Part shown: positions 5,041 through 60,639 of the stretch, in pieces | Numbering within the stretch: position 1 is the first letter of the stretch | Layout: the number at the start of each line of letters is the position of its first letter | NCBI GenBank assembly: GCA_964582615.1 | Contig: CAZORP010000002.1 | Span: 38,865 to 102,864 of the forward strand | DNA from: an uncultured Gammaproteobacteria bacterium | GTDB taxonomy: Bacteria; Patescibacteriota; Patescibacteriia; UBA9934 | DNA: 64,000 nt | Direction: 5' to 3' | Made by a program: the position numbers and the translations under genes | The notes under the pieces: generated by a model | The model's input: the letters and a program-made list of their open reading frames with translations, nothing else | The model's database searches: none | Told to the model about the DNA's origin: nothing

Positions 5041-5045
5041 GATGT

Positions 5046-6048: not shown

Positions 6049-6050
6049 TG

Positions 6051-6127
6051 TGGTGCCTCGGGCAGGAATTGAACCTGCGACCTTGAGCTTAGAAGTCTCC
6101 TGCTCTATCCAACTGAGCTACCGAGGC
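6051..6127 (-). tRNA. tRNA-Arg (anticodon TCT) with encoded CCA; the anticodon stem has two terminal mismatches
   Basis: Reverse complement reads GCCTCGG-TA-GCTC-AGTTGGATA-GAGC-A-GGAGA-CTTCTAA-GCTCA-AGGTC-GCAGG-TTCAATT-CCTGC-CCGAGGC-A-CCA. Confidence 0.7.
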
Positions 6128-6175
6128 AAAAACAGGCTGAGTGTACGTGGTTTTTGCCAGGAGTACAATACCTCC

Positions 6176-21094: not shown

Positions 21095-21174
21095 TTATGC
21101 ACAAGTTATCCACAACCCCTGTGGAAAAGGGTAATTTTTAGCTAATCTTCGCAAGATTGTACCCTGTGGATAAA
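21095..21174. promoter_or_regulatory. DnaA-box cluster upstream of dnaA
   Basis: TTATGCACA, TTATCCACA and TGTGGATAA read directly from the sequence. Confidence 0.55.
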
Positions 21175-21231
21175 ATGGGTATTATCCTCGCAGTCATCTT
21201 TTATTCCCCCGCTAGAAAAAGGTTCTTCGAT

Positions 21232-22608
21232 ATGAATACTCACGAGCTTTGGGAGGCCGTCCTTGCAGAACTTGAACTAAAACTCAGTAGAGCAAATTTT
21301 ACCACATGGTTTAATAAGACCTTTATCGCCGAATACCACATGGGGGATGTGGTCATCGGAACGCCAAATACTATCAATGCGTCTTGGCTTGAAAAGCGCC
21401 ACCATAAAGACATCATTAATGCGATTGAAAATGTCACCAATCAGCCCGTAAGAAGCCTCGGTTATCGCGTTGAAACAAAAAGCACCGGTCCTCAACCGCT
21501 TGTTCTTGAGCAACAAAAAACCACACCTCAAGACCTTGGCTTTAGCACTGGTCCCGATATTCCACCACCATCAGGAAATATCGCCATCAATCCTCAACAA
21601 ACCTTTGGAACATTCGTGGTAGGAAAACAGAACGAACTCGCTCACGCGGCGGCACAAGCAGTTGCTTCGCATCCCGGAGGAACCTACAATCCTCTTTTTA
21701 TTTACGGAGGTGTCGGACTTGGAAAAACCCACCTTCTCCACGCAATCGCTAATGAAATCCGTCGAAAGTGGCAAAGTGCCCGCATTATGTATGTTACTTG
21801 TGAGCACTTCACAAATGATTTTATTCACTCCGTACGATCGGGAAAAGGAAAGGAGTTCAAAGATCGCTACCGCAACGTTGACCTTCTTCTTATTGATGAC
21901 ATTCAGTTCATTACAGGAAAAGAGGGGACTCAGGAGGAGTTTTTTCACACGTTTAATGCACTTCATCAAGACAACCGCCAGATCGTCATTTCTTCCGACA
22001 GGCCTCCGAAATCCATCGCGGGGCTCGAAAAACGCCTTCAGTCTCGCCTTGAGTGGGGAATGCTCGTTGACGTAGGAACTCCAGACCTCGAAACACGCAT
22101 CGCTATTCTTGAGAGAAAATGCTCAGAAAAACAAGCAAATCTTTCTTCGGACATCCTTCACTATATCGCAGGAAATATCGTTTCAAACATTCGTGAACTT
22201 GAAGGGGCTCTCAATAAAATCATCGCCGTACACGAATTTCGAAACATGCCACCAACACTCGAATCCATAAAGCCAATCATTGCGAGCTTCGAATCTGAAA
22301 ATATTAAAAAAACCGTTACACCAAAGCAGGTTATCAGCGTTGTCGCAGAATATTTCGATATCACCACTGATGATGTTCTTGGAAAAAGCCGCGAGAAACG
22401 CCTCGCTTTTCCTCGACAAATCATCATGTATCTTCTGCGAGAAGAGATGAGTTCCTCCTATCCAACCATTGGAGCCGAGCTTGGCGGCCGTGATCACACG
22501 ACCGCCATGCATGCCCATGGAAAGATTAAGGAGCTTCTCGAGGTTGGGGACGAGAAGCTTATCAAAGACCTCGAACTCATTCGCCAACGTCTTTACATGG
22601 GTGCTTAA
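21232..22608 (+). CDS. dnaA: Chromosomal replication initiator DnaA (start at MNTHELWEAVL)
   Basis: AAA+ Walker A GGVGLGKTHL, sensor motifs and a C-terminal DNA-binding domain. Confidence 0.95.
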   Translation: MNTHELWEAVLAELELKLSRANFTTWFNKTFIAEYHMGDVVIGTPNTINASWLEKRHHKDIINAIENVTNQPVRSLGYRVETKSTGPQPLVLEQQKTTPQDLGFSTGPDIPPPSGNIAINPQQTFGTFVVGKQNELAHAAAQAVASHPGGTYNPLFIYGGVGLGKTHLLHAIANEIRRKWQSARIMYVTCEHFTNDFIHSVRSGKGKEFKDRYRNVDLLLIDDIQFITGKEGTQEEFFHTFNALHQDNRQIVISSDRPPKSIAGLEKRLQSRLEWGMLVDVGTPDLETRIAILERKCSEKQANLSSDILHYIAGNIVSNIRELEGALNKIIAVHEFRNMPPTLESIKPIIASFESENIKKTVTPKQVISVVAEYFDITTDDVLGKSREKRLAFPRQIIMYLLREEMSSSYPTIGAELGGRDHTTAMHAHGKIKELLEVGDEKLIKDLELIRQRLYMGA

Positions 22609-22609
22609 C

Positions 22610-22920
22610 TTATCCACAACTTCATCCACATGTGGATAAAACGTTCGGTTTTTGTCGGTGTGGATAACGTCGGGATAAGTCTCTGGATAACTTGTGGGTA
22701 TGTCTGTGGGTATCTTGTGGATGAAGTGTGGAGAACTTTCACTGGGATTTCCCTTCGAAAAGGTTATCCCCATTCTCCACAGAGTTATCCCCCAAGGGTG
22801 TGGAAAACTTTTTTAAAAAATCCCTTTATTCCGTGGGTTTTTAAGAAGTTATCCCCGCTATCCACAAGCTTACTATTACTATCTTTATTTATAAATAATT
22901 AAAACCTGTTAGGCTAGGCA
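22610..22920. promoter_or_regulatory. Putative oriC: DnaA-box array plus AT-rich unwinding element between dnaA and dnaN
   Basis: At least six TTATCCACA/TGTGGATAA boxes and variants (22610, 22631, 22659, 22763, 22785, 22866), followed by ctatctttatttataaataattaaaac. Confidence 0.65.
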
Positions 22921-22954: not shown

Positions 22955-24088
22955 GTGAAATTTTCCTGTACAAAAGATAACTTCCACATCGGTCTTGCAC
23001 TTACAGGTCATTTAGGTGCAAAAAATGCCAACCTCCCGGTTCTTAACAATATCCTTCTCCAAGCAGAAGTTGGTGGAGTTCGTCTTACGGCAACAAACCT
23101 TGATATTACGGTCTCATGCACAATGCGAGCCAAGGTTGATCAAGCGGGATCCTACACACTTCCCGCAAAGCTTCTTACTGAATACGTTGGCCTTCTTCCG
23201 GATGACCGTGTAGATGTAGATCTGCTTGATACTTCCGTTTCTCTTCGTTCAGCGGGTTCGCGAACAAAAATGCACGGCCTTTCTGCGGCTGAATTTCCTG
23301 CAATTCCTCGAGTAAGTGGAGGTACGGTATATACCGTTGCAGCACAAAAATTTGACGAAGCTCTTGGGCAAACGCTTTTTGCAGTTTCAACAAGTGAAGC
23401 TCGACAGATTCTCACAGGAGCCTTTTTGCATTTTCACGGAGATACAAAGACGGTAACCGTCGCCGCTACGGATAGTTATCGCCTTGGCGAAAAGAGCGCC
23501 CCGCTTGTCAGTGAAACACTTGGTGAGCGAAAGGTTGTCGTTCCCGCTCGAACACTTTCTGAAGTTCGAAGAATTCTCAGTGTGCTTCGTGGAAGTTCTG
23601 AACCCGTTGAGACGATTGATGTTGAACTTACGGAAAATCAAATAGCATTTCGTTGTGGAACGGTTGAACTTTCTTCAAGAACAATTGATGGCGTCTATCC
23701 AGACTATCGTCAAATTATTCCAAAGACATTTACCACGGAGCTTGTTGTTGAGAGGGGTGCGCTGATTCAGGCGGTAAAGCGTACGGCGCTTTTTGCGAAA
23801 AATGGACTCTTTGATGTTCGCTTTGAAGTGGTTCCTGATGAGAAAATTCTTCGTCTTACAGCAAATGATGTTGGTCGTGGAGAAAATGAAGTGACTATTC
23901 CCGCGGAGATTGTGGGAAATGCAAACGCGGTGACACTCAATTTCCGTTATCTCCTTGATGGTGCGCTGGCAATTGGTTCAGAATCTTTGCGTATAAAGAT
24001 GATCGATGCAATGAATCCTTGTATTCTTCTTCCGCAGGGTCAGGAAAAGGCTGAGTACTTCTATATCGTCATGCCAATTCGACAGTAG
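22955..24088 (+). CDS. dnaN: DNA polymerase III beta sliding clamp
   Basis: 377 aa with the three-domain clamp pattern; MKFSCTKDNF N-terminus. Confidence 0.9.
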   Translation: MKFSCTKDNFHIGLALTGHLGAKNANLPVLNNILLQAEVGGVRLTATNLDITVSCTMRAKVDQAGSYTLPAKLLTEYVGLLPDDRVDVDLLDTSVSLRSAGSRTKMHGLSAAEFPAIPRVSGGTVYTVAAQKFDEALGQTLFAVSTSEARQILTGAFLHFHGDTKTVTVAATDSYRLGEKSAPLVSETLGERKVVVPARTLSEVRRILSVLRGSSEPVETIDVELTENQIAFRCGTVELSSRTIDGVYPDYRQIIPKTFTTELVVERGALIQAVKRTALFAKNGLFDVRFEVVPDEKILRLTANDVGRGENEVTIPAEIVGNANAVTLNFRYLLDGALAIGSESLRIKMIDAMNPCILLPQGQEKAEYFYIVMPIRQ

Positions 24089-35981: not shown

Positions 35982-38900
35982 ATGCAGGAAAAAGAGAGAA
36001 GTTCGAAAAGATTTGAAGTCAAGCTTGGTCTTCAAGAGGTTGCTGAAAATGAGGAAGAGCAAAAGCTCAAAATAGACGGCTTAGTTGATGCGTTATTTTT
36101 AGCCATAGAAAAAAATGACCCCTATTTCCAGACATCGTTTGCACGATCGGAAATGACACACATAATGAATGGACTATTTTCCCCTCGAGATCGGGAGTAT
36201 TTTCTTGTTGGTGTTCTTAAAAAAAATCCTGAGCTTGCGTTGGGTTTTGGAAAATTTTTTCAAGAGTCCGAATCGATTGTATTGAAATATTTATGTGATG
36301 AAAATCTTGATGAATCGACAAGGTTGAGAATTTCTGAAGCGGCAATCGGGGCCTTTGATGTTATACATAACATACGTCTTTTAGAGGCTATCGAGAAACA
36401 GCTTTCATTTGAAAGTTTGTGGAGATTTAGGAAAAAATTTGGATATAGCGACGAATCTTTTGTGAGAATGCATGGAGTTATTAGTTTTATTAGGAATAGA
36501 TTTTTTTCTGATATTCCTTCTTGGCTAAGAGAGGAAATAAAACGCAAATCTCTAGAGGTTATTGTCTATTCAGATGAGTTTATATTTTGGGAGATCATGG
36601 ACAATCTAGAAAATATCGGAATTTCTCACGATGAAATTTACGATAAATTCGCTTCAAAGGGAAAGCTTCATGTACTTGCCCCCTATGTAAAACTCTTCTC
36701 AAGAGAAAAGCATGAGGGCATCCTTGAGTCATGTCTTAAACACGATAAACATTCTCTTAATAAATATTGGCAAAATTTTTATATTCATGATTTAAGAAAA
36801 TTTCTTAAAAGAGTTCTTGATTTAGACTGTGAGATTTTTGGATTTGATGCGCGTAGCTTCTCTTCGTTCTTCAGTCGGCGCCAAGAATTTTTTCACGAAG
36901 AAGAGTCTCATGCGGAAGGTTATTCGCATGATCTTCAAGGTGAATATGAGGCTTGTATAAATTTTTTTATAGAAAGCTCCTTGCCAAAAGAATTCTTTGA
37001 ATTTTGCAAACTTCAAAAAATTCACATCCAAGAAGATTGGATTAAAAGAATTGCAGAAAAATATAAGGGGGATTTATTCATTATCCAAAATCTTCCCATG
37101 TTGCGACATATTAGAAAACTTCCAGAGATTTCTTCTTTGTCAATTCATGAATTTTTAGATTCGTATTTTCGCTATAATCTTGGCGAAGCACCGATTGTAG
37201 AGATCTTCTTAAGAAGACATGATTTTCCAGAATTAGTCACTAATGAAACATTTCTCGCATACTTTGGTAATACGAAATTCTTTTGGAAGAATTTTGAAGC
37301 GCTTGATATTCCAAATAAAGAAAAATTTTTACGAGTATCATACATAAGCGATGCCTTACTAGAACATTTTGAAGCTTTGAATGAGCCTACGAAGAAAATT
37401 CTCGTTCGCAATCTTCTAGATGAATGTTTGCATCACCAAGGCCTGATTAATATCGAGAATTTTTTTCAAAATGAAGAAAAAAGAAAATACCTCAGCGACA
37501 AGGATATTGTTGATGTTATTTTCGGCAACGATACTCGTTTTTACTGGAGCCAAGATTTTCTTCAAGATTTATTGATGAGTCGAAGGAACTCAAAAGAACT
37601 TGCGCAGAAGATTCTTGAAGGTAATCTTTCTGAAGGTCGTCAAGAAGAAGAGTGGAATGCTTACACTATTAATTTTATACTGACAAATTTTGAGGTAAAA
37701 ATACATGATAAGCCTTTTCTTTTTTGTAAAGAAAATATTGGTAATTTCTTTTCAAAAAAAACCTATCATGCAGTTAAAGATATTTTTCTTGGAAAAAAAG
37801 ATTCAGAAGCTTGCGCGGATTTCTGTATCACCGAAAGCGGTGATAAAGCACTTCTACAACTTCGAAAAAAAATTCAAGAGATGAAGTTGCGAATGTATAA
37901 TCCAAATTTTCTTGATAAAGACCTTTTTGAAAATAATGTCTATCTTGAAATTTTTAAAAATGCGGTAAGATTTTCTGAGGCACAATTTCATGGCGATAAT
38001 CCCACGATTCATAGAATTATTTCAAATTTTTACAATGCAGAATCTTTAGGTGAAGTGAAGTCCCTTGATCCCTATTATCAATACAATTTATCAGAGAAGG
38101 TAGAAAGGCTTCGTACTGTTAAAGTTGAAGATTTTTCTGATGGTTCACGAGTTCGGTATGGGTATCTCAAAAGTCGCATTATGGCGGCGGGTGAATTAGC
38201 AAAAAGGAGTGATATTTTTTCTTTTTCAGTGAAAAAAATTGAAGAAAAAATTTCTCATGAAATCAAGCGTCTCAACGATCTTCTTGAAAAACTAAAAAAC
38301 CCCATCGCTCGTGAGAATGTTTTTAAAAAAATTCTAGATTTACAGAATATCAAGCTAAGAAGTTTGGAAAGTTTTCAGGAAAATTTTCACAAGATCTGTT
38401 CTGAAAATATTGCCAATGACGATGTTCTTGAAATGCTTTTTGCGTATGCGCTTCGGAAAGTGCCAGACAACCAATCTCCGCTCATCGCTTTGCGAGGATC
38501 CAAGAGTCCTAGCATCGAGGATATGAGTCGAGTTGTTGAGTTCTGCGAACATGTTGTTGTTGATATGGTTTGGAAGAGATTTTTTACTCAAAAAGAGTAT
38601 AGAAAAACACTTTTTGGCATAGCTAATTGCAATGCACTCACAGACGAGATTGTTCGTTCGCAAAATGCCGAGTCGAGGGGTTTTATCGATATGGAATTCT
38701 TTGCTACGAGAGGGATTCTTATGGAGTTTTCTGGTCACTTCTCCGATGCATGTTGGGCTGGAAAATATGGTAGCATCGCCAAAAATTTTCCTAACATGTT
38801 TACGTCAGTTTTTGTACAAAATAAAGGAACGAAGTACGAGCGTATAGTCGGATGTTCAATGTTTATTGAAACGGTTGCCGTTGATGGGACTCCGCTTCTT

Positions 38901-39296
38901 GTTATACGAGGACTAAATCCTTTAGAGAATGTTATTAACCACCTTTCAGCAAGGAGTTTTTTCACGGCATTTATAAAATATGCAAACGAACTCGCTCAAA
39001 GATCGGGAAGGGTCTTGGCTATTGTTATTGATGATCATTGTGGAGGATCGTCTACAAATAGACCTGTCATGTATGAGCTTCTTGCGAGTTTGCGAAGTTC
39101 GCTTGAGAAGGTGACGCTCAAATCGCCTCAAGATACCACGTTTAATGGTTATAACATTGTTAACGAAACATATTTTGTTTCAGAGGAACTCCTAGGGGAT
39201 CAAAATGACTATTCTTATGGTAGAGAATTTCCTGGATTTGGGAAAATGAAGGAGATTTTTCCTAAAGATTTTTCTCTAAAACCTCAAGCTCGTTAA
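35982..39296 (+). CDS. Large (1104 aa) orphan cytoplasmic protein rich in K/E/F/N/L/I, probably alpha-helical; no recognisable family
   Basis: Single uninterrupted ORF, A+T-richer than the neighbouring genes, no signal peptide. The C-terminal third carries Cys/His motifs (SDACWAGKYG, VIDDHCGG). Confidence 0.6.
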   Translation: MQEKERSSKRFEVKLGLQEVAENEEEQKLKIDGLVDALFLAIEKNDPYFQTSFARSEMTHIMNGLFSPRDREYFLVGVLKKNPELALGFGKFFQESESIVLKYLCDENLDESTRLRISEAAIGAFDVIHNIRLLEAIEKQLSFESLWRFRKKFGYSDESFVRMHGVISFIRNRFFSDIPSWLREEIKRKSLEVIVYSDEFIFWEIMDNLENIGISHDEIYDKFASKGKLHVLAPYVKLFSREKHEGILESCLKHDKHSLNKYWQNFYIHDLRKFLKRVLDLDCEIFGFDARSFSSFFSRRQEFFHEEESHAEGYSHDLQGEYEACINFFIESSLPKEFFEFCKLQKIHIQEDWIKRIAEKYKGDLFIIQNLPMLRHIRKLPEISSLSIHEFLDSYFRYNLGEAPIVEIFLRRHDFPELVTNETFLAYFGNTKFFWKNFEALDIPNKEKFLRVSYISDALLEHFEALNEPTKKILVRNLLDECLHHQGLINIENFFQNEEKRKYLSDKDIVDVIFGNDTRFYWSQDFLQDLLMSRRNSKELAQKILEGNLSEGRQEEEWNAYTINFILTNFEVKIHDKPFLFCKENIGNFFSKKTYHAVKDIFLGKKDSEACADFCITESGDKALLQLRKKIQEMKLRMYNPNFLDKDLFENNVYLEIFKNAVRFSEAQFHGDNPTIHRIISNFYNAESLGEVKSLDPYYQYNLSEKVERLRTVKVEDFSDGSRVRYGYLKSRIMAAGELAKRSDIFSFSVKKIEEKISHEIKRLNDLLEKLKNPIARENVFKKILDLQNIKLRSLESFQENFHKICSENIANDDVLEMLFAYALRKVPDNQSPLIALRGSKSPSIEDMSRVVEFCEHVVVDMVWKRFFTQKEYRKTLFGIANCNALTDEIVRSQNAESRGFIDMEFFATRGILMEFSGHFSDACWAGKYGSIAKNFPNMFTSVFVQNKGTKYERIVGCSMFIETVAVDGTPLLVIRGLNPLENVINHLSARSFFTAFIKYANELAQRSGRVLAIVIDDHCGGSSTNRPVMYELLASLRSSLEKVTLKSPQDTTFNGYNIVNETYFVSEELLGDQNDYSYGREFPGFGKMKEIFPKDFSLKPQAR

Positions 39297-42482: not shown

Positions 42483-43051
42483 CATTCTGGCTCTTGTTTG
42501 CGCTTTTTTTGTCCGTTGGAATGTTTATTGCCCTCGTTGGACTTTTTCTTTTATGGGCGATGAGTATTCTTGGTTCGTGGAAAGCGCCCTACGTTCCACT
42601 GCCAAAAGAAGCGCTTCCCGGCATTGTGGAAGCATTATCCATAGATCCCGGAAATGTAGTGTATGATATAGGGTGTGGCGATGGTCGCATTCTGCGTGCT
42701 TGCGCGGAACGATCTCCTCACGCAACGTATAAGGGTATCGAGCGTGCGTGGTTTCCTTACCTCATCGCGCGCCTTCATCGATCCCATCCTTCCGTTCTTT
42801 TCGTCCGGGGTGACGCAACGCTTGCGTCATTTACAGATGCACACCGCGTTGTGCTTTATCTGCTTCCCGGGTTCGTAGACGTCATTGGTGAAAAAATCCG
42901 TAGAGAATGTGCGCCAGGAGCGCGTGTGATTTCGGTGGATTTCCCCATAGCGTCATGGGTACCGGTACAGGTCATTGAACAGCGCCACCTGCCGCAGCGT
43001 ATGCGGGGAAGACTCATGTATGTGTACATCTTGGAAAAAGATTCAGCGTAG
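42473..43051 (+). CDS. Class I SAM-dependent methyltransferase with an N-terminal transmembrane helix
   Basis: VYDIGCGDGRIL motif I. Confidence 0.7.
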   Translation: MHMTFWLLFALFLSVGMFIALVGLFLLWAMSILGSWKAPYVPLPKEALPGIVEALSIDPGNVVYDIGCGDGRILRACAERSPHATYKGIERAWFPYLIARLHRSHPSVLFVRGDATLASFTDAHRVVLYLLPGFVDVIGEKIRRECAPGARVISVDFPIASWVPVQVIEQRHLPQRMRGRLMYVYILEKDSA

Positions 43052-44429
43052 CCTTACATCCATTATTATTGGATGTTCGTTGTTTGCCACCCTGGGAGCA
43101 GGTTGTGGTCAAACCTCGCAAAAGCCAGGATCTGCCGAGAAAGTGACACTTACCTATTGGAGGGTCTTTGATGGTGATGATGCGTTCGATGAAATAGTGA
43201 GTGCCTACGAGGCATTGCATCCGTACGTTACAATCGACTATCGCGTATTGCGATACGATGAGTACGAGAGTGCGCTTCTTCGTTCTTTGGCAAAGGGTGA
43301 GGGTCCGGATATGTTCACGGTGCACAATACGCACATTGGAGAGTATCGCGATTTGCTACTTCCCATGCCTGCGTCGGTTACGGTAAAGACACTTGAAACG
43401 GTAGGAAGTTTGCGAAAAGAAACCGTCCTTTCAGAGAAAAAGACAACCATGCCTTCCTTGCGAAGTATTCGTGAGAATTTTGTGGATGTCGTTGGTCAAG
43501 ACGTGATTTTTTCGGAAACTGATGATTCGGGAAAAGAAGAAGAGCGTGTTTATGGTCTTCCTCTTGCACTTGATACACTTGCCTTGTATTACGACAAGGA
43601 TTTGTTTAATGCTGCTGGAATTGCTGAACCTCCTGCTACGTGGTCGGATGTGAGTGATGTTGTCAAAAAAATGACAACCTACGATGATAAGGGCGAGGTT
43701 GTACAGTCTGCTCTTGGTATGGGTACCGGTGAAAATGTGGAGCGATCTGCCGACATCATGCAGGTGCTCATGATGCAGAATGGAACGCACATGGTTGACG
43801 ATCGTCAGCGCGTTGCCTTCCATGAAATTCCCGATACCATTGCAGATGGTGTATATCCTGGACTTGATGCAGTCCGTTTTTATACAGACTTCGCGAATCC
43901 AGTAAAAGACACCTATACATGGAACGATACATATCCTCGTAATCTCGAAGCTTTTGCTTCAGGATCTACGGCGATGTTTTTAGGGTATAGCTATCATGCT
44001 CCGCTTATTAAAGCGTTAGCGCCGGGAAAAAATATTGGCATTGCAAAGCTTCCTCAGATTGGAAGCGGTGCTAAAGAGGTAAATATTGCAAACTATTGGG
44101 TTGAAGGCGTTTCTCGTTCAAGTAAGCATCATGATGAAGCTTGGGATTTTCTTGCATTCGCAACCAGTCAGGACCATGTTCTTTCGTATCTTCAAGAAAC
44201 ACAGAAGCCTACCGCGCTTCGCGCACTCATTGATGATCAAATTGAAGATCCTGTGCTAAATCCGTTTGTGAGTCAGGTTCTTACTTCTCAAAGCTGGTAT
44301 CACGGTAATGATGCCGATGCTATGGAGGAGGCTTTTATTCAACTTGCTGAAATGGTACTTTCGGGAAACCGCAAGGCTGAAGACGCAATACAAAATGCGG
44401 CAAAAATTGTTGCCCAGACGTATAAGTAG
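43020..44429 (+). CDS. ABC transporter extracellular solute-binding lipoprotein (carbohydrate-type); start uncertain (43020 or later)
   Basis: Lipobox LGAGCGQ, then a family-1 SBP fold (TLTYWRVFDGDD...). Confidence 0.7.
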   Translation: MCTSWKKIQRSLTSIIIGCSLFATLGAGCGQTSQKPGSAEKVTLTYWRVFDGDDAFDEIVSAYEALHPYVTIDYRVLRYDEYESALLRSLAKGEGPDMFTVHNTHIGEYRDLLLPMPASVTVKTLETVGSLRKETVLSEKKTTMPSLRSIRENFVDVVGQDVIFSETDDSGKEEERVYGLPLALDTLALYYDKDLFNAAGIAEPPATWSDVSDVVKKMTTYDDKGEVVQSALGMGTGENVERSADIMQVLMMQNGTHMVDDRQRVAFHEIPDTIADGVYPGLDAVRFYTDFANPVKDTYTWNDTYPRNLEAFASGSTAMFLGYSYHAPLIKALAPGKNIGIAKLPQIGSGAKEVNIANYWVEGVSRSSKHHDEAWDFLAFATSQDHVLSYLQETQKPTALRALIDDQIEDPVLNPFVSQVLTSQSWYHGNDADAMEEAFIQLAEMVLSGNRKAEDAIQNAAKIVAQTYK

Positions 44430-44430
44430 T

Positions 44431-44991
44431 ATGCGTACATTACCTTCAAGACTTGCAGGTTTTGCCATAGGATCGTTACTCGCCGTATCAATACATACGC
44501 CTGTTTTTGCGCAGAGCAGCTCGGGTCCTATTGAAGCGAGCTATCAGAGCATCATGAAAAGTGGGATTATTTTTGGAAATATTTGTAGTGACGCACCTCC
44601 GGTTACAGGGGCCGATTCTTGCGCATGTCGTTCTTCTGGTCAGTGCTCCCTCACCGACCTTCTTCAGGTTGCGGTGAATATTATCAACTTTATTTTAGGA
44701 ATATCGGGATCTGTAGCGCTTGTGATGTTTGTTTATGGGGGATTTCTCTGGGTTTTTGCTCAAGGAAGATCCGAGTACATAGCAGAAGGACAGGCTACGC
44801 TTAAGCATGCCATTCTTGGACTTGCGATTATTTTTGGCGCCTATGCGCTCATCGCAATGACGCTACGCATGATAGGAGGACTCGATCCTTCAGGTGCCAG
44901 CCTCGAGAGCACTATTCAAAGTCTTGATGTTGAGGAAAATGGTGCCAAGCAGCCGCTTAATACGGACGAAATTTTTCAGACCACTCAATAA
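44431..44991 (+). CDS. Pilin-like small secreted membrane protein (TrbC/VirB2-like), paralog 1
   Basis: Signal peptide MRTLPSRLAGFAIGSLLAVSIHTPVFAQ, two hydrophobic helices around VYGGFLWVFAQG, Cys-rich loop. Confidence 0.6.
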   Translation: MRTLPSRLAGFAIGSLLAVSIHTPVFAQSSSGPIEASYQSIMKSGIIFGNICSDAPPVTGADSCACRSSGQCSLTDLLQVAVNIINFILGISGSVALVMFVYGGFLWVFAQGRSEYIAEGQATLKHAILGLAIIFGAYALIAMTLRMIGGLDPSGASLESTIQSLDVEENGAKQPLNTDEIFQTTQ

Positions 44992-45000
44992 ACAAGCATT

Positions 45001-45342
45001 ATGTATATACGCAAAATTCTTTCTCCGCTCATATCAGGAGTGCTCATTCTCGCACCTCTTATAACACACGCCGAGGTGGTGTACCTTATCAATCCACTTG
45101 GAGAAACCGATCCTCGTATTTTGATTGCTCGCATTATCAAGGCAATTCTTTCAATCCTCGGATCTCTTTCTCTTCTTATGCTCGTGTATGCGGGTGTCCT
45201 TTGGATTACCGCTCAGGGTGATGCTAAGAAGGTTGAACGCGGAAAGCACATTATGACATGGGTTGTTGCAGGAATTGCGCTCATTGCTGGGTCGTATGTC
45301 ATTGTAAACGCACTCATCGCGGCATTTACGACAGCCGCATAG
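45001..45342 (+). CDS. Pilin-like protein, paralog 2
   Basis: Signal peptide plus LLMLVYAGVLWITAQGDAKKVERGK...IAGSYVIV. Confidence 0.6.
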   Translation: MYIRKILSPLISGVLILAPLITHAEVVYLINPLGETDPRILIARIIKAILSILGSLSLLMLVYAGVLWITAQGDAKKVERGKHIMTWVVAGIALIAGSYVIVNALIAAFTTAA

Positions 45343-45416
45343 AGGGCAACCTTTCCTCAGGTTTTCAACAGAAGAAAAAAAGAAAGTGGTATACTCTTGA
45401 GGTAATTCTTTTTTCT

Positions 45417-45812
45417 ATGATGAAACGTCTTTTCCGCTTTTTTGTTAGCGCCGCACTCGGCGTTGCTTGTGCGCTTCCGTTTACGCGTATCGCGGCTCCT
45501 GTTTATGCCCAGCCTCTCGAAGCTGAAGATTTTCTCAATGAAGATTTTTCTGATGCCACGGGACTTGGTCAGGCTGATCTTCAAGAAACCATTGGAAACC
45601 TTATTCGTGTTGCTTTGAGTTTCTTGGGTGTAGTTGCGGTGTGTATCGTGCTTTATGGTGGATTTAAGTGGATGACTGCGGGTGGTAATGACGAAAAGGT
45701 TGGGGAGGCAAAGCGTTTAATGATCTCTGGACTCATTGGTCTTGCAATTATCATGTCTTCTTACGCGATTGCAAGCTTTGCGATTACCTCTATTCTTGAA
45801 GCTACGGCATAA
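45417..45812 (+). CDS. Pilin-like protein, paralog 3
   Basis: MMKRLFRFFVSAALGVACALPFTRIAAPVYAQ...VLYGGFKWMTAGGNDEKVGEAK. Confidence 0.6.
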   Translation: MMKRLFRFFVSAALGVACALPFTRIAAPVYAQPLEAEDFLNEDFSDATGLGQADLQETIGNLIRVALSFLGVVAVCIVLYGGFKWMTAGGNDEKVGEAKRLMISGLIGLAIIMSSYAIASFAITSILEATA

Positions 45813-45834
45813 GCGTGCCGCATGCAGGTCATGT

Positions 45835-46203
45835 ATGTCGGTAAAATCTCTTCTTTTCTGTGTTGCCATTGCCGTGCTTACGATGCCTGCATCGGTCTAC
45901 GCACAGCTTGGAACGCAAGATACGGGACTGCAGGCTACGGTACAAAGTGGTTATGGCGTTTCGGGCACTATTATTGGTCTTCCGGAATTTATTGGAAAAT
46001 ACATCATCAATCCGATACTTGGGTTATCGGGAACGATCATCTTCTTTTTAATGGCGTGGGCAGGATTCCTCTGGATGACCGCCGCGGGAGATACCAAGCG
46101 TGTTGAAAAATCAAAGATGATCCTTTCGCAGTGTGTTGTTGGATTGGTGATTCTTGTGGGTTCCTACGCGCTGACAAATTACCTTATCACAATCTTTGCG
46201 TAA
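45835..46203 (+). CDS. Pilin-like protein, paralog 4
   Basis: MSVKSLLFCVAIAVLTMPASVYAQ...AWAGFLWMTAAGDTKRVEKSK. Confidence 0.6.
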   Translation: MSVKSLLFCVAIAVLTMPASVYAQLGTQDTGLQATVQSGYGVSGTIIGLPEFIGKYIINPILGLSGTIIFFLMAWAGFLWMTAAGDTKRVEKSKMILSQCVVGLVILVGSYALTNYLITIFA

Positions 46204-46867
46204 TATGACGTTGCTGAAGAAAGGATTCCTCGTTCTTGCCCTTACTTTTGGAATTTCTCTTGGTGGAGGGGGTATCGCGCATGGTGTTGATTTAGGGTGG
46301 GGAAATCTCAATGAATCTGCAAATGAAGCTGGTTTGAGCGGTTCGGATAGTTTGACGGATATGGTGGCCCTCGTTATCAATTCTGTTTTGAGTATTTCAG
46401 GTGCACTCCTTTTTATCTACTTCATCTACGCAGGATTCCTCTGGATGACCGCCGCGGGAGATACTAAGAATGTCGACAAAGCAAAGACCATCATGCGCAA
46501 CGCTGTTGTTGGACTGGTTGTCCTCATGGCATCGTATGCACTCGCGCTTTTTGTTGCTAAGTCGCTTGGAATTAAGACTACGAGAATGACTGAGGTTGCC
46601 AGTGGTTCTGGACTGTCAACGAATGGAGAGCTTGTTCCATTTGTTGGAGATCTTATTGCAAAGCTCGTTTCATTTGCGGGAGTCATCGTTTTTATCATCT
46701 TCATTTACGCAGGATTCCTCTGGATGACCGCCGCGGGAGATACTAAGAATGTCGACAAAGCAAAGACCATCATGCGCAACGCTGTTGTTGGACTCGTGGT
46801 GCTTTTACTCGCATATGCACTTACGGATTTCGTTGTGACACTTCTTTCACAGGCAGAGGTTACATAG
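46196..46867 (+). CDS. Pilin-like protein, paralog 5, with a tandemly duplicated pilin module
   Basis: AGFLWMTAAGDTKNVDKAKTIMRNAVVGLVVL occurs twice. Confidence 0.6.
   Translation: MRNMTLLKKGFLVLALTFGISLGGGGIAHGVDLGWGNLNESANEAGLSGSDSLTDMVALVINSVLSISGALLFIYFIYAGFLWMTAAGDTKNVDKAKTIMRNAVVGLVVLMASYALALFVAKSLGIKTTRMTEVASGSGLSTNGELVPFVGDLIAKLVSFAGVIVFIIFIYAGFLWMTAAGDTKNVDKAKTIMRNAVVGLVVLLLAYALTDFVVTLLSQAEVT
46427..46515 (+). repeat. 89-nt direct repeat, copy 1 (identical to 46706-46794)
   Basis: Exact nucleotide identity read by eye; the 279-nt spacing preserves the reading frame. Confidence 0.85.
46706..46794 (+). repeat. 89-nt direct repeat, copy 2
   Basis: Identical to 46427-46515. Confidence 0.85.
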
Positions 46868-46929
46868 TCCTATCCACAGGATCGTGAATACAGAGAAAAA
46901 CATGTTACAATATCCCTATAAAATATTTT

Positions 46930-47316
46930 ATGAAAAATTGGAAACATCTCATCGCAGGCGCAGCGCTTGCAACGGCACCTTTAGCGGCTACGGTTCCAGC
47001 TTTTGCGGTAGGCAACATTGACCTCAATGATCAGCTTTCAAATGTTAACGACAATGCTGGATTCAATGATGGTCCTCTTACCGACACACTTGGTTCGCTC
47101 ATTAATGTAGCACTTGGACTTCTTGGTATCGTCTTCCTTCTCCTTACGCTTTACGCTGGATGGCTTTGGATGACGGCGGCGGGAGATGCAAAGAATACCG
47201 AAAAAGCAAAGAATATTCTTGTTACCGCAGTTGTTGGTTTGGTTATTCTTCTCTCCGCATACGCAATCTCGTCGTTCGTTATTGAAAATGTTACCAACGC
47301 AGTTAACGGAGCGTAA
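46930..47316 (+). CDS. Pilin-like protein, paralog 6
   Basis: Signal peptide plus TLYAGWLWMTAAGDAKNTEKAKN. Confidence 0.6.
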   Translation: MKNWKHLIAGAALATAPLAATVPAFAVGNIDLNDQLSNVNDNAGFNDGPLTDTLGSLINVALGLLGIVFLLLTLYAGWLWMTAAGDAKNTEKAKNILVTAVVGLVILLSAYAISSFVIENVTNAVNGA

Positions 47317-47327
47317 TACGCGTTCAG

Positions 47328-47358
47328 TAAAAAAACTGGCATCATGCCAGTTTTTTTG
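47328..47358. terminator. Bidirectional terminator
   Basis: aaaaaaCTGGCATcATGCCAGttttttt. Confidence 0.6.
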
Positions 47359-48571
47359 TTGTTGAAGTTTGTATAGCTAGCGCAAGGAAAAAGAGTGTGA
47401 GAAAGGCAAGGTCGTTCTTAAGGAAAGGAACGTCAACGAGTCCGTGAATGAGAAGTGTGAGTATTGCAGGAGCCCATAAGGCGCTCTCAGGAAGGTCTTT
47501 TGTAAGAAATATAAGACGCACAAGCCACGCGGAGATGCAAAGAAGAGAGAGTGCTCCAAAAAGACCATACTCAACCCAAAAGTTTAGGATCCAAGTGTGG
47601 GGATATTGAAAGAGCTCATACTCCTTGGCGATGTGGTAGGGAATAAGTGCTGAGGGAAAGTTTCCTATTCCCGCACCAAGTATTGGGGCGTCACGAAGAA
47701 GGTTAATGGTCTCTCCCCATTGAGACCGTCTAACCATACCGGAGTCGTCACAAAGAAATATTTTTGCTCGGATATCTCCAAAGAGAAGACTCCCACTAAA
47801 AAGAAGAAAACCACTCAAGAGTATGAGTTGCTTGTGGCGTTGTTTTTTTGTAGACAACCAAATCCACACTGCGAGCGAAAGAATGATTGCAAGAATTCCT
47901 GCTTCGGTTTTTGCAAGCACTACGCCAAGAAACATCCAAAGGCTTGCGAGTATGAGAAGAATGCGTTCTCGTGTGATGTTGTTCCTTATCGCGAGCGCTA
48001 TTCCTGAGGCAATAAGAGGCGATAGGAAGAGTCCAAGAGCATTGGGGTAGGGAAAGATGCTTGTACTGCGTCGTTCTGCGAGCCAGGCGATAGGAAGACT
48101 TGTTCCGCTTATATATTGAAAAACTGCAAAGGCTGTTAGTACACAACCGCAGAGCATGAGTGAAAAAAGCCCATATCGACGATCTTCTTGATGTATGAGA
48201 GTTGCTCTAACAATAAAAAGAAACAGCGTCGGTTCAAGAAGATAAGCTCTCCAGAGCCCAAGTGACGAGAGAAGACTCTCTTGAGGAACAATGAGAAAAC
48301 TCGTAAAAAGAGGAATGATTATAAAAAGTAGGGTGGTACCCATTTGTCGAAGTATCTTGTTTTTTTGAGGATGCTTTGCGAGATCTATCATCCAGAAAAA
48401 TGTGAGAATAAAAAAGATTCCCTCAAGAAATGTTGTTGGAAGTGGTCCAATATTGTAGCGAATGAGGTAAGTGGGAAGTAGGCCGAGAAAAAGTAAGACT
48501 CCATCGCGAAGGCGATAAGCTGTGACAATGGCAAAGCCTAAAAGGCCAAGCACTATAAGAAGTGTCGTCAT
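47342..48571 (-). CDS. O-antigen ligase-like (Wzy_C family) polytopic membrane protein
   Basis: About 10 transmembrane helices with a central large periplasmic loop. Confidence 0.55.
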   Translation of the reverse strand: MTTLLIVLGLLGFAIVTAYRLRDGVLLFLGLLPTYLIRYNIGPLPTTFLEGIFFILTFFWMIDLAKHPQKNKILRQMGTTLLFIIIPLFTSFLIVPQESLLSSLGLWRAYLLEPTLFLFIVRATLIHQEDRRYGLFSLMLCGCVLTAFAVFQYISGTSLPIAWLAERRSTSIFPYPNALGLFLSPLIASGIALAIRNNITRERILLILASLWMFLGVVLAKTEAGILAIILSLAVWIWLSTKKQRHKQLILLSGFLLFSGSLLFGDIRAKIFLCDDSGMVRRSQWGETINLLRDAPILGAGIGNFPSALIPYHIAKEYELFQYPHTWILNFWVEYGLFGALSLLCISAWLVRLIFLTKDLPESALWAPAILTLLIHGLVDVPFLKNDLAFLTLFFLALAIQTSTTKKLA

Positions 48572-52446: not shown

Positions 52447-52751
52447 AGACCAAAGGAAGAAGACCGACTTGATGTCGGAAGAAGTTCATTAAGAGAAAAA
52501 GATCCATCCCACGAAATGTTTCCTAAAAGAAGGAGTGTTCCAAGGAGAATTACCGCGTAAAGAGCTACGTAAAGCATGATGAGTGAAATTGTGCCCCAAC
52601 CCTCAATGCCATACCTCCAAAGGTGAAAAATGTTGAAAAAAAGAAACACGCCTCCAAAAAGCGCTGCTGCCGCAAGCGGAATGAGAAGGACGATATAGGG
52701 AATATCCATATGAAAAAGTATAGCAGGTTTAAACTTCGCGAAGTTTTCCAA
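52443..52751 (-). CDS. Small membrane protein
   Basis: 102 aa with three hydrophobic helices. Confidence 0.35.
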
Positions 52752-53757
52752 GGTGCGTATAGGCTTTTGAAGTCGCTACGCGTCCACGAGGGGTTCGCTC
52801 GAGAAAGCCTATTTGTAAGAGGTAAGGCTCGTAAACTTCTTCAATGGTTGCGGGTTCTTCTTGCGTTGCCGCCGCGAGCGTTGTGAGTCCAACGGGTCCT
52901 CCTTGGAAATGATCAATAAGCGCAAGGAGCAATCGACGATCGGAGATGTCGAGGCCAAGCGGATCTATCGCTAAAAGATCAAGTGCGGTTTGTGCAACTT
53001 CTCGAGTGATGATCCCGTCATTTTTTACTTGGGCAAAATCTCGAACGCGTTTAAGAAGACGGTTAGCAATGCGAGGAGTTTTTCTTGCGCGTTCCGCAAT
53101 AGCTTGCGCGGAATGATGATCAAGTGAAAAACCAAGTAGTGCGGCGCTTCTTGTTACAATGCGCTCCATGTCTTCATCGGTATAAAACTCAAGTTGAAAA
53201 ATGCTTCCAAATCGATCGCGTAGTGGGGCTGAAAGTAATGAAAGTCGCGTGGTCGCACCCACGATGGTAAAAGGCTCGAGAGTGAGTCGAAGTGTTCTTG
53301 CGGTTGGTCCTTTTCCAACGACAACATCAAGGCAAAAGTCTTCCATTGCTGGATACAGAACCTCCTCGATAGCCTTATTCATGCGATGAATTTCGTCGAT
53401 AAAAAGAATATCGCCACGTTGCAGGTTGGAAAGAATAGCGGCGAGATCCCCCACGCGTTCAAGTGCCGGTCCGCTAGTTACTCGAACAGTGCTCTCCATC
53501 TCTCGTCCAATGATATGGGCAAGAGTTGTTTTTCCAAGTCCAGGATTTCCATAGAGAAGAAGATGTTCAAGCGGCTCTTTTCGGCTCTTTGCAGCGGCTA
53601 TGGAAATATCAAGATTTGCTCGAAGATTTTTTTGACCAATAAAATCACTTAATCGCTGTGGTCGAAGGGTGATCTCTTGTTGTTGTTCTTGCTCTTGAAC
53701 TTCTGGAGCGATTTCGCGCTGAGGTTCTTGGGGGGGTGCGTGTTCCTCGATTGCCAT
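52729..53757 (-). CDS. ruvB: Holliday junction branch-migration helicase RuvB (start at MAIEEHAPP)
   Basis: Walker [24 protein letters not shown], sensor motifs. Confidence 0.9.
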
Positions 53758-53848
53758 AGGAGGACATTCTATCGGTTTTTGTTCGGTATGCCCATGAGGG
53801 TTGCGGAAAAGCGTAAAACATGAAAAAATACCCATCGTTAAATGATGA

Positions 53849-56409: not shown

Positions 56410-58809
56410 TTAAAAAGAAAAAAGATGTCGTTTATTTCTGAATACCCAGTACCCACCAGCGCCAAGAGTTCCGAGAATTCCTGATCCGCCAAGTGCGAAT
56501 GAAAAGGGAACTGAGGGTTCTTTGGCGTGAATTTCTTCAGATGGTCTTAAGGGTTGTGCCGGTGTTTGTGATAGTGATCCTGTTATTTTTGAGATTATAG
56601 GTGAATGTTCTTGTTTGGTGATTTTTTGCACATCATTAAAGGATCTTGGAAGAAGAATAAGCTTTCCATCTTCATGGCGAGATATTCCAACGATATGAAA
56701 TCGATCGCCAACGGAGAGTCCGCTAAACGCCTTTGTCTTTGCGTCATCTCTTCCAAAGAAAGTGTCACCTTCGGTGGTGAGAAATTGAAAGAGCCCATCT
56801 TCTTTTCCCTGAAGAGATCCTTCCGCAAAGAGTAATGATGATTCGTAAGATGTGATTTTTGAATCTTCCGCAATCGCCTCGGATGCGGTTTCGTGAACGA
56901 TGAAGATGTCATCTGCTGAAGTTATGACAATTCTTGGAACATCCTCCTGAAGGGTGATTTTTCCTTGAACGCGAAGTGTCATTTCTTGAGTGATTGTTGG
57001 CCATGAGGCTTTGTAAAAATATACCTGTATACCCTGAAGGTACATTGTTCGTTTTCCAAAGATTCCGGGAACCGCAAGAACATTTCCTTGGTAGCTCACA
57101 AGTTCTCCTTCGGCAAGTGAAGAAATTTCCTCGCGAAGAATTGATCGATAAGATGAAGGGATTTTTTCTTCATCACGTTGTTTCTCCTTGACTGATATTT
57201 TTGGTGATTCTTTTACTTGTGTGAAAGATATTTCCTGAACTTGAGGTGCTTCAATTAGGGATGTTTTGGTCTGAGAATGATTTGCTCCTGAAGAAGTTTC
57301 TTCAGGGGAAGGAGAAGCTCCTTGAGTGGGTGAAGGCTCGTTGATGGATTCGGTGATCGTGGTTTTGATGATTTCATACGTGGGAATCATGGGTGATTCG
57401 TTTGATTTCTCTTCTAGTGAAGAAGTTGTTTGAGTTTGTTGTGTTGTGCAAATATTTTCTCCCTCGGGAGTCGGCGTGAGCGGCATTTTCCAAGCATCAT
57501 TACAGCGTCCTGCGGAAAAGCCTTTTGGTGGTGCGGGAAAAGTTTCTGTTCCGTACGTGAGGGTAAAGAATACGGTTCCATCAATAGTTTTAAGCTGAAG
57601 AGTATCTCCGTTGTTGTTAAGTTTTCCTTTTGGATTTCTAAGAAGGAGAAGGTGATGCGCGGGAAGCATTTCTTCGATAACCGTTTGTTTTCCTGAGCCT
57701 TCTTCAAACACAACGCTTCCTGAGGGAACATCTGCATTACCGGTATTTTCTATCTCAACCCATTCATCTTCCGAGATGGGGGAGCTAAGAAATTCTTGAA
57801 TGTGCACGCCAATAAGCGAAATGATTTCTCGTGGCGACGGTGATGGTGTGGGAAGTGGGTGTGGATCATCTTCTTGCATGGGTTCTTCCGCGACTTCTTC
57901 CGATGAAGTTACTATCAAAGGTTCTGGAAGAAGAAAATCCTGCATTGACGTCACTTCCTCATCTTCAGAAGGATCTTTTTGAGGTTCTTGAACGAGTTCC
58001 TCGGTGAGATCTTCTTCGTGAGGATCTATTGCACTATCGAGAGAATCTTCTTGCGGGTCATATTCTTCGATAGTTGCTTCGGTGTCTGTAGAGGCCTCCT
58101 CCCGAGTCTCGATTTCTATAAGCGTGTCTTCTGTGGAGGGTGTAGCACTCCCCGGAACCTCATTTTCTGAGGATGAAGGCGTCTCTAAGGTGGGACTGTT
58201 ATTTGCAAGAGAAGACTCCTCAGAGATCTCGGCTTCCGCGATCAAAAAGAATTCTTCAGGTGGAGCTCCGGGTGTTCCGCACCACGCTCCATGCAAATCG
58301 TCGTAGCATTGTTGCGATGTTTTCCACGCTCCCCATTCTCCTTGCTCTGCGCTTGCGTGAGGATTTGTTCTCCCAAAACTCGGGGTTGTGTAGGTAAAGC
58401 TATCAAGAATATTTCCTTGAACATCTTTGAGCTGAAGATTTCCCTGTGTATTGGGAATACTCAAATGTGCAGTAACAAGGTTTGGCGCTACGCTAAGTAC
58501 ACTCTTAGCGTCGCCAAGATTGTAATTGGCGACAAGAAATACTTGATGTGAGTTAAGTTCGTAGGCGGGAAGTACGAGAGGATCACTTCCTGATGCGCCA
58601 GTCACAACAATGCCGTCAAGATTTATGGCGCTGTTGGTTGGATTGAAGATTTCCAACCACTCATCGGCGGTTGATAGAGGAGATCCTCCCCATGCGACTT
58701 CTGAAAAAATGAGTCGGTAGTCTTCTTTTTGGATTTCCTGCGCACGTGCAGAAAGAGCACCGAAGAAGAGCATAATGCTAAGGATTCCTGTGCGAATAAC
58801 ATAGCTCAT
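56410..58809 (-). CDS. Surface protein with two lamin-tail-domain (LTD)-like modules, a long acidic/Pro-rich linker and a C-terminal transmembrane anchor
   Basis: Signal peptide MSYVIRTGILSIMLFFGALSARAQE. LTD-like segments EVAWGGSPLSTADEWLEIFNPTNSAINLDGIVV and HIQEFLSSPISEDEWVEIENTGNADV. C-terminus GILGTLGAGGYWVFRNKR. Confidence 0.55.
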   Translation of the reverse strand: MSYVIRTGILSIMLFFGALSARAQEIQKEDYRLIFSEVAWGGSPLSTADEWLEIFNPTNSAINLDGIVVTGASGSDPLVLPAYELNSHQVFLVANYNLGDAKSVLSVAPNLVTAHLSIPNTQGNLQLKDVQGNILDSFTYTTPSFGRTNPHASAEQGEWGAWKTSQQCYDDLHGAWCGTPGAPPEEFFLIAEAEISEESSLANNSPTLETPSSSENEVPGSATPSTEDTLIEIETREEASTDTEATIEEYDPQEDSLDSAIDPHEEDLTEELVQEPQKDPSEDEEVTSMQDFLLPEPLIVTSSEEVAEEPMQEDDPHPLPTPSPSPREIISLIGVHIQEFLSSPISEDEWVEIENTGNADVPSGSVVFEEGSGKQTVIEEMLPAHHLLLLRNPKGKLNNNGDTLQLKTIDGTVFFTLTYGTETFPAPPKGFSAGRCNDAWKMPLTPTPEGENICTTQQTQTTSSLEEKSNESPMIPTYEIIKTTITESINEPSPTQGASPSPEETSSGANHSQTKTSLIEAPQVQEISFTQVKESPKISVKEKQRDEEKIPSSYRSILREEISSLAEGELVSYQGNVLAVPGIFGKRTMYLQGIQVYFYKASWPTITQEMTLRVQGKITLQEDVPRIVITSADDIFIVHETASEAIAEDSKITSYESSLLFAEGSLQGKEDGLFQFLTTEGDTFFGRDDAKTKAFSGLSVGDRFHIVGISRHEDGKLILLPRSFNDVQKITKQEHSPIISKITGSLSQTPAQPLRPSEEIHAKEPSVPFSFALGGSGILGTLGAGGYWVFRNKRHLFSF

Positions 58810-59003
58810 GGAATTAAATACAGGTGAATAAAACGACGTCGTGCAAAACAAAAACTCCCAAACATCGCAAAAATTGCGACGGGGAGTTTTGTCTGCCAAT
58901 CTACATTACCACGGTATTCTTCCGCGCATGGATGCCTGTGGAAAAGAAAAAACCGACCCCTACGTGTAAGGGTCGGTGCAGGGTGCGGCACCTATGATGG
59001 CCT

Positions 59004-59529: not shown

Positions 59530-60639
59530 ATGGCTGATACATTCACTACGGTGACAAAGAAGGGGTACGGACAAAGACTTGCAGAGTCGGTAATGGGAGT
59601 TTTTTTGGGAATAGCCCTGTTTTTTGGATCGTTTGCAGTACTTTTTTCTAATGAGGGACGCCAAGATCTTGGGCGTATTGGGGAGGATTTTCTTCCTATT
59701 CAGCACGAAAGTGAACTTGGGGGCGTCTTGGGAAAAGGCGTTTCTTTTTCTGGAGAAGTAACAACGCAGGAGACGCTTCGTGATAGCCTCTATCTTCTCC
59801 CAGGATCGTATCTTGTCGTAGAAAGAATTCCTGAAATTTTTGCTTGGCAAGAAAATGCAACAACGCACAAGCAAGAGGCGGTTGGAGGAACCGAAACAAC
59901 GACAACGACATATACGTATACAACCGACTGGGTAACGCATCAAACGCCAACAACAAATTTTGCTCAACCCGTTGGTCACGATCAGGGTTTACAGCAGGAA
60001 TCTTCCGAGCGAAAACTTGCAGAACGTGTTGTTATGGGGTCTCGTGACCTCTCCCTTGCGGATGTTACACTTCCCGACTTTCAGCCGCTTGTGCTTTCCT
60101 CGGAAAATATCACCATTCCCGATCGTGCAGTTCTTGCGGGAAATATGCTCTATCTTCGTGGTGCCGATCCTCAGCATCCAAAAGTTGGAGATGAACGTGT
60201 GCGATTTTTAGTACTGCCAAGTGCCATGAGGGGAACCTTGTTTGCAGTTCCCTCGCAAACAAGCTGGGAGCCATTTGTAAAGAATGATATTCGCTTGTAC
60301 CGACTTTTTTCAGAGTCAAGAGAAGGGGCTCTTGCGCTTATGCATGGAGAATATCAGCATACACTTTGGGCATTTCGCATTCTTGGTTTTGTCATGATGT
60401 GGATGGGTCTTGGGTTAATGCTTGGGCCGCTACCTATGCTCCTTGCATTCTTTCCCTTTGCAAAAAATCTCGGAGGAGCGGTGGTGTTTGCAGTTACGGG
60501 GGCGGTCGCGCTCGTTCTTTCCGCAATCACCATACTTATTTCGGCATTTCTTCACAGTATTATCGCCATCGTGACAGTTGTAATATTGGTCGGATTAGGT
60601 TTTGGCGGAGTTTGGTATCGTCAGCGCACGGCTAAATAA
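59530..60639 (+). CDS. Membrane protein with one N-terminal and about three C-terminal transmembrane helices (TMEM43/DUF1625-like topology)
   Basis: 369 aa; large central soluble domain. Confidence 0.45.
   Translation: MADTFTTVTKKGYGQRLAESVMGVFLGIALFFGSFAVLFSNEGRQDLGRIGEDFLPIQHESELGGVLGKGVSFSGEVTTQETLRDSLYLLPGSYLVVERIPEIFAWQENATTHKQEAVGGTETTTTTYTYTTDWVTHQTPTTNFAQPVGHDQGLQQESSERKLAERVVMGSRDLSLADVTLPDFQPLVLSSENITIPDRAVLAGNMLYLRGADPQHPKVGDERVRFLVLPSAMRGTLFAVPSQTSWEPFVKNDIRLYRLFSESREGALALMHGEYQHTLWAFRILGFVMMWMGLGLMLGPLPMLLAFFPFAKNLGGAVVFAVTGAVALVLSAITILISAFLHSIIAIVTVVILVGLGFGGVWYRQRTAK

Follow-up and report, generated by a model that had tools for sequence, protein, structure and literature searches.

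The window analyzed here, a 64,000-nucleotide (64-kb) stretch of contig CAZORP010000002.1 (assembly GCA_964582615.1) from a bacterium of the Patescibacteriota lineage, contains an array of six tandem genes for small VirB2-like pilins, the fifth of which encodes two pilin modules and carries a perfect 89-nt direct repeat, one copy in each module. All coordinates are those of the window. The six genes, designated pilin genes 1 to 6, lie on the forward (+) strand: gene 1 (44431-44991, 186 aa, a single module), gene 2 (45001-45342, 113 aa), gene 3 (45417-45812, 131 aa), gene 4 (45835-46203, 122 aa), gene 5, the double (two-module) pilin (46205-46867, 220 aa), and gene 6 (46930-47316, 128 aa). Each of them is complete, with a start codon, a signal peptide, and a stop codon. 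The Pfam model PF18895 (Type IV secretion system (T4SS) pilin, VirB2-like; cut-off 26.6 bits) matches all six with 27.6-61.5 bits (33.3, 31.7, 35.3, 27.6, 61.5, and 36.6 bits for genes 1 to 6, respectively), and gene 1, with 27.9 bits, also reaches the cut-off of 27.9 for PF04956 (TrbC/VirB2); these model matches would place the proteins in the VirB2-like family. Directly 5′ of the array lies the gene for an extracellular solute-binding protein (SBP) of the SBP_bac_1 type (43020-44429, +; PF01547 and PF13416), a putative lipoprotein with a lipobox-like LGAGC after the signal sequence. Its start is TTG at 42975 in the list of open reading frames (ORFs) and ATG at 43020 when read from the translation. 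At the other end, a hairpin read from the sequence, aaaaaaCTGGCAtcaTGCCAGttttttt, located between an A-run and a T-run (47330-47357), separates the convergent pilin gene 6 and Wzy_C gene and is a probable bidirectional terminator closing the array; a promoter and terminator consensus scan of 42900-47500 gave no excess over shuffled sequence and missed this hairpin.

Gene 5 encodes, in this order, a signal peptide, hairpin 1, a linker of ~22 aa, and hairpin 2. The AlphaFold2 model, built with 22 homologues (mean predicted local distance difference test score (pLDDT) of 70, ~80-90 in the helices), has a signal-peptide helix followed by long helices at residues 50-82, 87-120, 143-175, and 180-219, which form the two hairpins. 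Residues 1-27 resemble a signal peptide, the mature N-terminus is acidic, and both loops (AAGDTKNVDKAKTIMR) contain four K/R against two D/E each. According to the positive-inside rule, both hairpins may therefore have their termini outside and their loop inside, an arrangement with which a tandem fusion would be topologically consistent. A Foldseek search of the model against the PDB returned only generic helical bundles, none of them at E ≤0.001, and a profile search of PDB sequences yielded nothing beyond noise of the signal-peptide kind.

The preliminary description of this DNA had reported a perfect 89-nt repeat within a single ORF containing two pilin modules, and direct comparison confirmed it. 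The copy in module 1 (46427-46515, +) and the copy in module 2 (46706-46794, +) are identical, encode YAGFLWMTAAGDTKNVDKAKTIMRNAVVG, and are offset by 279 nt, that is, by 93 codons in frame, within an ORF (46205-46867) that shows two PF18895 stretches. The match extends no further than 89 nt on either side; past one mismatch (46426/46705), six further bases match (46420-46425). Between the copies lies a divergent spacer of 190 nt (46516-46705, +), which encodes the second helix of module 1, the linker, and the first helix of module 2, shows 43-46% nucleotide identity to the corresponding flanks, and is uninterrupted coding sequence without a stop codon or a hydrophobic signal-peptide remnant. 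A 34-nt core is found at 46060, 46430, and 46709. The copy in gene 4 had thus been recognized, although it was placed at 46063, 3 nt off, and the exact match to both gene 5 cores comprises 35 nt (46060-46094, +). The window contains no other direct-repeat family of ≥30 nt and no other exact repeat of ≥25 nt except an (AATCCC) hexamer microsatellite (6378-6430; 8.8 copies, 97% match), which lies ~250 nt from a tRNA-Arg gene (6051-6127).

Perfect identity at this spacing had been taken as a sign of either a very recent duplication or gene conversion. A very recent tandem duplication of the 279-nt pilin module would give both the in-frame spacing of exactly 93 codons and the perfectly identical core, but it predicts near-identity over the whole 279 nt. 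Instead, module-to-module identity drops from 100% within the 89 nt to 44% across the remaining 190 aligned positions (43% upstream and 46% downstream), and every one of the 107 differences across the 279 aligned nt falls outside the tract. Permutation of these 107 differences never gave a run of 89 in 200,000 trials (maximum 35), and a run of 29, as observed at third codon positions alone, was likewise obtained in 0 of 200,000 permutations; chance is therefore excluded as the origin of the 89-nt identity. Moreover, the two-module build is ancient. A protein search with gene 5 retrieved the exact sequence once and then 25 proteins (P0002-P0026; 187-266 aa, 32-51% identity), each of which possesses two W[MT][TM]A cores 96-114 residues apart; the named sources are Uhrbacteria, Falkowbacteria, Magasanikbacteria, and "Patescibacteria group" bins. 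The contigs of two of these proteins, L001 and L003, match the order in the window, namely an NTP-transferase gene, SBP_bac_1, six PF18895 genes, and Wzy_C further downstream, with pilin lengths of ~183/112/131/123-133/230-240/126 aa and the double pilin at position 5. The all-against-all bit scores among the three arrays are clearly highest on the diagonal, so that the array genes are positional orthologues, with counterparts of genes 1, 2, 3, 4, and 6 in both L001 and L003, and gene 5 was already the double pilin before the lineages of the window, L001, and L003 separated. Gene 5 is thus an anciently fused double pilin. With a build common to the 25 homologues and to the same syntenic array position, and with modules this divergent outside the tract, the idea of a very recent duplication is refuted, and we regard it as extremely improbable.

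Synonymous sites point to an exchange at the DNA level. Among the 27 codons of the 30-codon core that specify the same amino acid in an in-register comparison, 26 are identical, the sole exception being a boundary codon. The corresponding figures are 69 of 140 (49%) when eight further two-module genes are pooled and, as a median, 50% for 744 pairs of adjacent modules. Selection for an element that acts at the nucleotide level (for example, a binding site, an RNA structure, or a signal for recombination) or for two identical protein loops could be considered here, as the core corresponds to the part of the pilin family that is most conserved and the loops co-vary between neighbouring modules within a genome (GDPKQTQKA in L001 and GDSKATGKAKD in L003). 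However, the orthologous cores of L001 and L003 differ from that of the window, and from each other, at about half of the synonymous codons; the window core shows only 66-77% nucleotide identity to them, with ~50% of synonymous codons identical, which argues that the core is free of nucleotide-level constraint. A search of Rfam gave no match in the pilin array, and neither a conserved cross-species nucleotide motif nor a covarying structure was seen. At the protein level, other two-module genes tolerate 63-83% amino acid identity between their own cores, and none of the other homologues exceeds 83%, versus 100% in gene 5; furthermore, identity at 26 of 27 synonymous codons is beyond the reach of selection on the protein. 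Selection may favour the persistence of a converted allele without being the mechanism itself, and as an explanation of the repeat it is very unlikely.

A conflict between flank and core provides additional support for gene conversion. In 20 of 21 comparisons, the upstream flank of module 1 resembles module 1 of the other protein more closely, whereas both window cores are nearer to the module-2 type (15 comparisons versus 2, with 4 ties), with which they share VDKAK and MRNA features, as opposed to the GDEKQVKKAKDIM-like core of the module-1 type. These affinities suggest that module 2 was the donor and module 1 the recipient. The 35-nt match between genes 4 and 5, in which 16 of 19 synonymous codons are identical against a background of ~50%, is probably a second conversion tract, either shorter or older.

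Tracts of this kind recur in other arrays. A hidden Markov model (HMM) built from the modules identified 1,031 modules across 163 sources, including seven modules of the window. Pairs of modules within the same locus, 2,939 in total from a non-redundant set of 143 locus-strands, were compared in register. Expected runs were obtained from simulations in which the amino acids stayed fixed and codons were drawn anew according to the usage of the respective locus; the longest run in these simulations was 50 nt. Exact in-register runs of ≥30 nt were observed in 51 pairs (1.55 expected), runs of ≥40 nt in 27 pairs (0.25 expected), and runs of ≥80 nt in 8 pairs (0.0 expected), and only 0.02% of between-locus pairs reached 30 nt. 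Nearly all of the long runs connect adjacent modules. The core-only pattern is seen again in about nine further arrays of Patescibacteria. At least seven loci besides the window contain core-only tracts (L031, 113 nt; L136, 79 nt; L045, 62 nt; L026, 62 nt; L068; L109; and L140), in which the perfect block begins 0-15 nt before the Trp codon and the adjoining N-terminal parts are 13-50% identical; among the long tracts, the window holds the only case within a single ORF. The cores of gene 6 and of module 2 in gene 5 are 81% identical in L003, with a 23-nt exact run and the shared loop GDSKATGKAKD, and in L001 the same two partners share the loop GDPKQTQKA, which indicates that conversion partners differ between lineages. 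Whole pilin modules that are 100% identical over ≥210 nt were also observed, in L057 (4568-5643) and L047 (5111-5600). These whole-module copies are true recent gene duplications, in contrast with the core-only tract of the window.

This recurrence also bears on the possibility of an assembly or polishing artefact, in which near-identical cores are equalized by mis-mapped reads or the assembly graph loops through a shared k-mer. The window comes from a single metagenome-type assembly, and repeats are a classic source of consensus errors. Nevertheless, more than 20 independent assemblies contain two modules in tandem at a similar spacing, which makes the structure real, and comparable tracts occur in many unrelated assemblies; the 190-nt spacer is uninterrupted, homologous coding sequence, and a typical read pair exceeds the 89-nt repeat in length. 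Furthermore, polishing could equalize only cores that were already near-identical, which still implies conversion. An artefact is accordingly considered unlikely.

Based on the mosaic identity, the synonymous sites, the flank/core conflict, and the recurrence, which together favour the gene conversion alternative of the earlier proposal, the 89-nt repeat is very probably a recent intragenic gene conversion tract within an old double pilin gene. The proposed mechanism is non-reciprocal homologous recombination, by which one module would have received the conserved centre of its partner, the transfer most likely being from module 2 to module 1. The copied centre would run from the end of the first helix, with the YAGFLWMTA motif, through the positively charged loop into the start of the second helix. 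The limits of the tract could lie where the modules lose the nucleotide similarity required for heteroduplex formation, which would leave the N-terminal and C-terminal parts divergent. Only the conserved core may retain enough nucleotide identity between paralogues for a heteroduplex, and conversion would thereby be confined to the core and reinforce itself. The window encodes part of the recombination machinery, RuvB (52729-53835).

Several points weigh against this interpretation or parts of it. The exact gene 5 protein is known from one assembly only, and a search for an unconverted relative in the protein database, species-representative genomes, and Joint Genome Institute (JGI) metagenomes found none above ~50% amino acid identity; the best match in the genome and metagenome scans had 43-50%, and most matches were two adjacent single-module genes joined by tblastn. 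The proposed direction of transfer follows a majority of 15 comparisons to 2, with 4 ties, over ~30 residues. In 19 of 21 comparisons, the downstream flank of module 1 resembles module 2 as well, a weak indication that the history may include an older, longer, since-diverged event rather than a single clean tract. With respect to function, no VirB4-like ATPase or T4SS channel family was detected by Pfam among the 28 window ORFs scanned, which included all those of ≥600 aa. As a published survey found the pilin gene near virB4 in only 1135 of 1948 assemblies (PMC12102498), this negative weakens the assignment to T4SS pilins without overturning it. Assembly of the array proteins into a pilus is hypothetical, and filament formation by Patescibacteria pilins is treated as unproven in the literature (PMC12857230).

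Programmed pilin variation would give a repeat of this kind a different role, either in cassette-type antigenic variation or as the template/target pair of a diversity-generating retroelement (DGR). Candidate phyla radiation (CPR) genomes often carry DGRs. Tandem divergent pilin paralogues, moreover, recall the virB2 arrays of Anaplasma and Bartonella (PMC12102498, PMC3556328). On the other hand, the segment transferred here is the conserved core and not a variable region, and the array members keep their positions even in distant relatives. None of the six genes is a silent cassette, since each has its full length and a signal peptide. The repeat copies are identical, without the adenine-specific mismatches of a DGR, and no reverse transcriptase was found among the window ORFs scanned, the small ones of which were covered only in part. 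Programmed variation is therefore regarded as highly improbable.

Expansion and contraction by recombination between the repeats had been put forward as a way in which the array could vary. Recombination between the 89-nt copies yields in-frame products, namely a 127-aa single-module pilin or a three-module protein, and module number does differ by lineage: SBP-linked arrays contain pilins of 2, 4, or 6 modules, with up to at least 8 elsewhere. However, every homologue found for gene 5 of the window has exactly two modules, and the L001 and L003 arrays both contain six genes. The suggestion is thus supported only in part: module number differs among lineages, but it is stable at two in gene 5 and its closest homologues, and no sign of current variation was seen in the window. 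A HMMER scan of 1.84 billion cluster representatives gave 24,489 relatives at E ≤0.001; among the best 140 of these, which are biased towards the two-module query, 84 have ≥2 modules, 38 have ≥3, and several have six to eight according to the module HMM, and one relative of 1775 aa contains 12 matched stretches. The order in L163 is methyltransferase, SBP, three pilin genes, a six-module pilin of 501 aa (5001-6506), and further pilin genes, and L164 comprises an SBP gene and 16 pilin genes, including a four-module one of 427 aa (5001-6284); both multi-module ORFs are uninterrupted under translation table 11. Module and gene numbers have thus changed over evolutionary time in what looks like the same SBP-linked locus. 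A recent expansion in L163 and L164 was considered and rejected, as their modules are only 60-78% identical and lack perfect tracts. Among the relatives P0123-P0259, many "poly-pilins" were seen, with 3 to at least 8 hairpin modules per ORF and without internal signal peptides.

These observations raise the tentative possibility that covalently concatenated VirB2-like pilins of 2 to at least 8 modules are a widespread and apparently undescribed class within a conserved locus made up of an SBP gene and a pilin array behind it, in which the core would serve as a recombination hotspot and concatemers would enter a pilus-like filament as multi-protomer blocks. We conjecture that such a hotspot could keep the loop, facing the cytoplasm or the lumen, uniform among neighbours and that unequal exchange at it could alter module and gene number. 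As a separate observation, a small-residue motif (PGG, PGA, or SAG) is present in the linker past the second helix of module 1 in most two-module homologues, and this helix has the orientation of a signal peptide (N-terminal end inside, C-terminal end outside). It is pure speculation that cleavage at this motif would free two pilins from one precursor.

The linkage of the array to the SBP gene is not peculiar to the window. In 79 related loci, most of those among L001-L165 with enough upstream sequence, the first pilin module is immediately preceded by a homologue of SBP_bac_1 (33-63% identity). Further upstream in the window, dnaA (21157-22608), a 23-nt tandem repeat with TGTGGATAA DnaA-box motifs (22661-22727), and dnaN (22955-24088) mark a probable replication origin, ~22 kb upstream of the pilin array; T4SS genes of Patescibacteria have been published as often lying near dnaA, and the window array fits this pattern. 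The largest unannotated gene of the window, an ORF of 1104 aa (35982-39296), has no Pfam family at E ≤0.001. A protein of 829 aa with a lamin-tail domain (LTD; 56410-58899, −) and a TMEM43-family protein (59530-60639, +) are both unusual for a small bacterial genome. The 23S rRNA gene runs from 61886 past the window end at 64000, and no match to 16S rRNA was found in the window, that is, within ~62 kb upstream of 23S; the rRNA genes therefore appear to be unlinked.

Previous descriptions of pilin arrays in Patescibacteria have presented them simply as sets of divergent paralogues. A cluster of six pilin genes is essential in Candidatus Southlakia epibionticum, the only species tested (PMC10633639, PMC12857230), and the function of the arrays is still open (PMC12857230). 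The present analysis adds that the arrays contain genetically fused double pilins, elsewhere with up to at least 8 modules, that neighbouring modules appear to recombine their conserved centre while the N-terminal parts, which may face outward, remain distinct, and that a solute-binding-protein gene regularly precedes the pilin arrays. Whether a pilus can accommodate covalent pilin dimers, whether the shared loop has a common partner, and whether the SBP is part of an uptake route are questions raised by these features. More generally, a perfect short repeat within a paralogue family does not by itself imply a recent duplication.

Among known systems, the closest are the VirB2 arrays of Patescibacteria, of which 441 with 2-11 genes were reported from 3,035 genomes, with a mean within-array identity of 25% and a maximum of 54%, and which the authors likened to the virB2 amplifications of Bartonella and Anaplasma (PMC12102498). 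Like these PF18895 arrays, the window array consists of six small tandem genes for divergent paralogues, each with a signal peptide and a two-helix hairpin, and it is chromosomal, ~22 kb from a dnaA/DnaA-box cluster. Unlike the published arrays, it contains a covalently fused double pilin and has a conserved SBP_bac_1 neighbour upstream, and no virB4 or other T4SS machinery was detected among the scanned ORFs of the 64-kb window. In addition, the window array appears to evolve partly in concert, whereas the published description stresses divergence only. Literature searches, including full-text searches, found no report of fused pilins, SBP linkage, or gene conversion or internal duplication of VirB2-type pilins in Patescibacteria.

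Gene conversion between paralogues and concerted evolution are known from tuf genes, rRNA operons, and surface-protein families. The pilin tracts resemble conversion of the tuf and rRNA type in the short perfect tract with diverged flanks, the synonymous identity, the conflict between core and flank, and the preference for adjacent copies. They differ from it in that the putative donor and recipient in the window lie within one ORF and in that the tracts of independent lineages fall repeatedly in one conserved segment of 30 codons. Anaplasma phagocytophilum and A. marginale likewise possess tandem VirB2 paralogues with a conserved centre and hypervariable N- and C-proximal regions; their copy number varies among strains, their arrays adjoin virB4-2, and fused modules are not reported (PMC3556328). 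In contrast to Anaplasma, the arrays of the window, L001, and L003 are fixed at six genes and do not lie beside virB4. The T-pilin of the Agrobacterium Ti plasmid and the TrbC pilin of RP4 are cyclized head to tail, by a post-translational link within one subunit. Such cyclization means that both termini of a VirB2-type hairpin are close together and on the same side, which makes a covalent link between the end of one hairpin and the beginning of another topologically plausible. Unlike in the T-pilin and TrbC, two or more subunits are here joined genetically, through linkers of ~20-35 residues.

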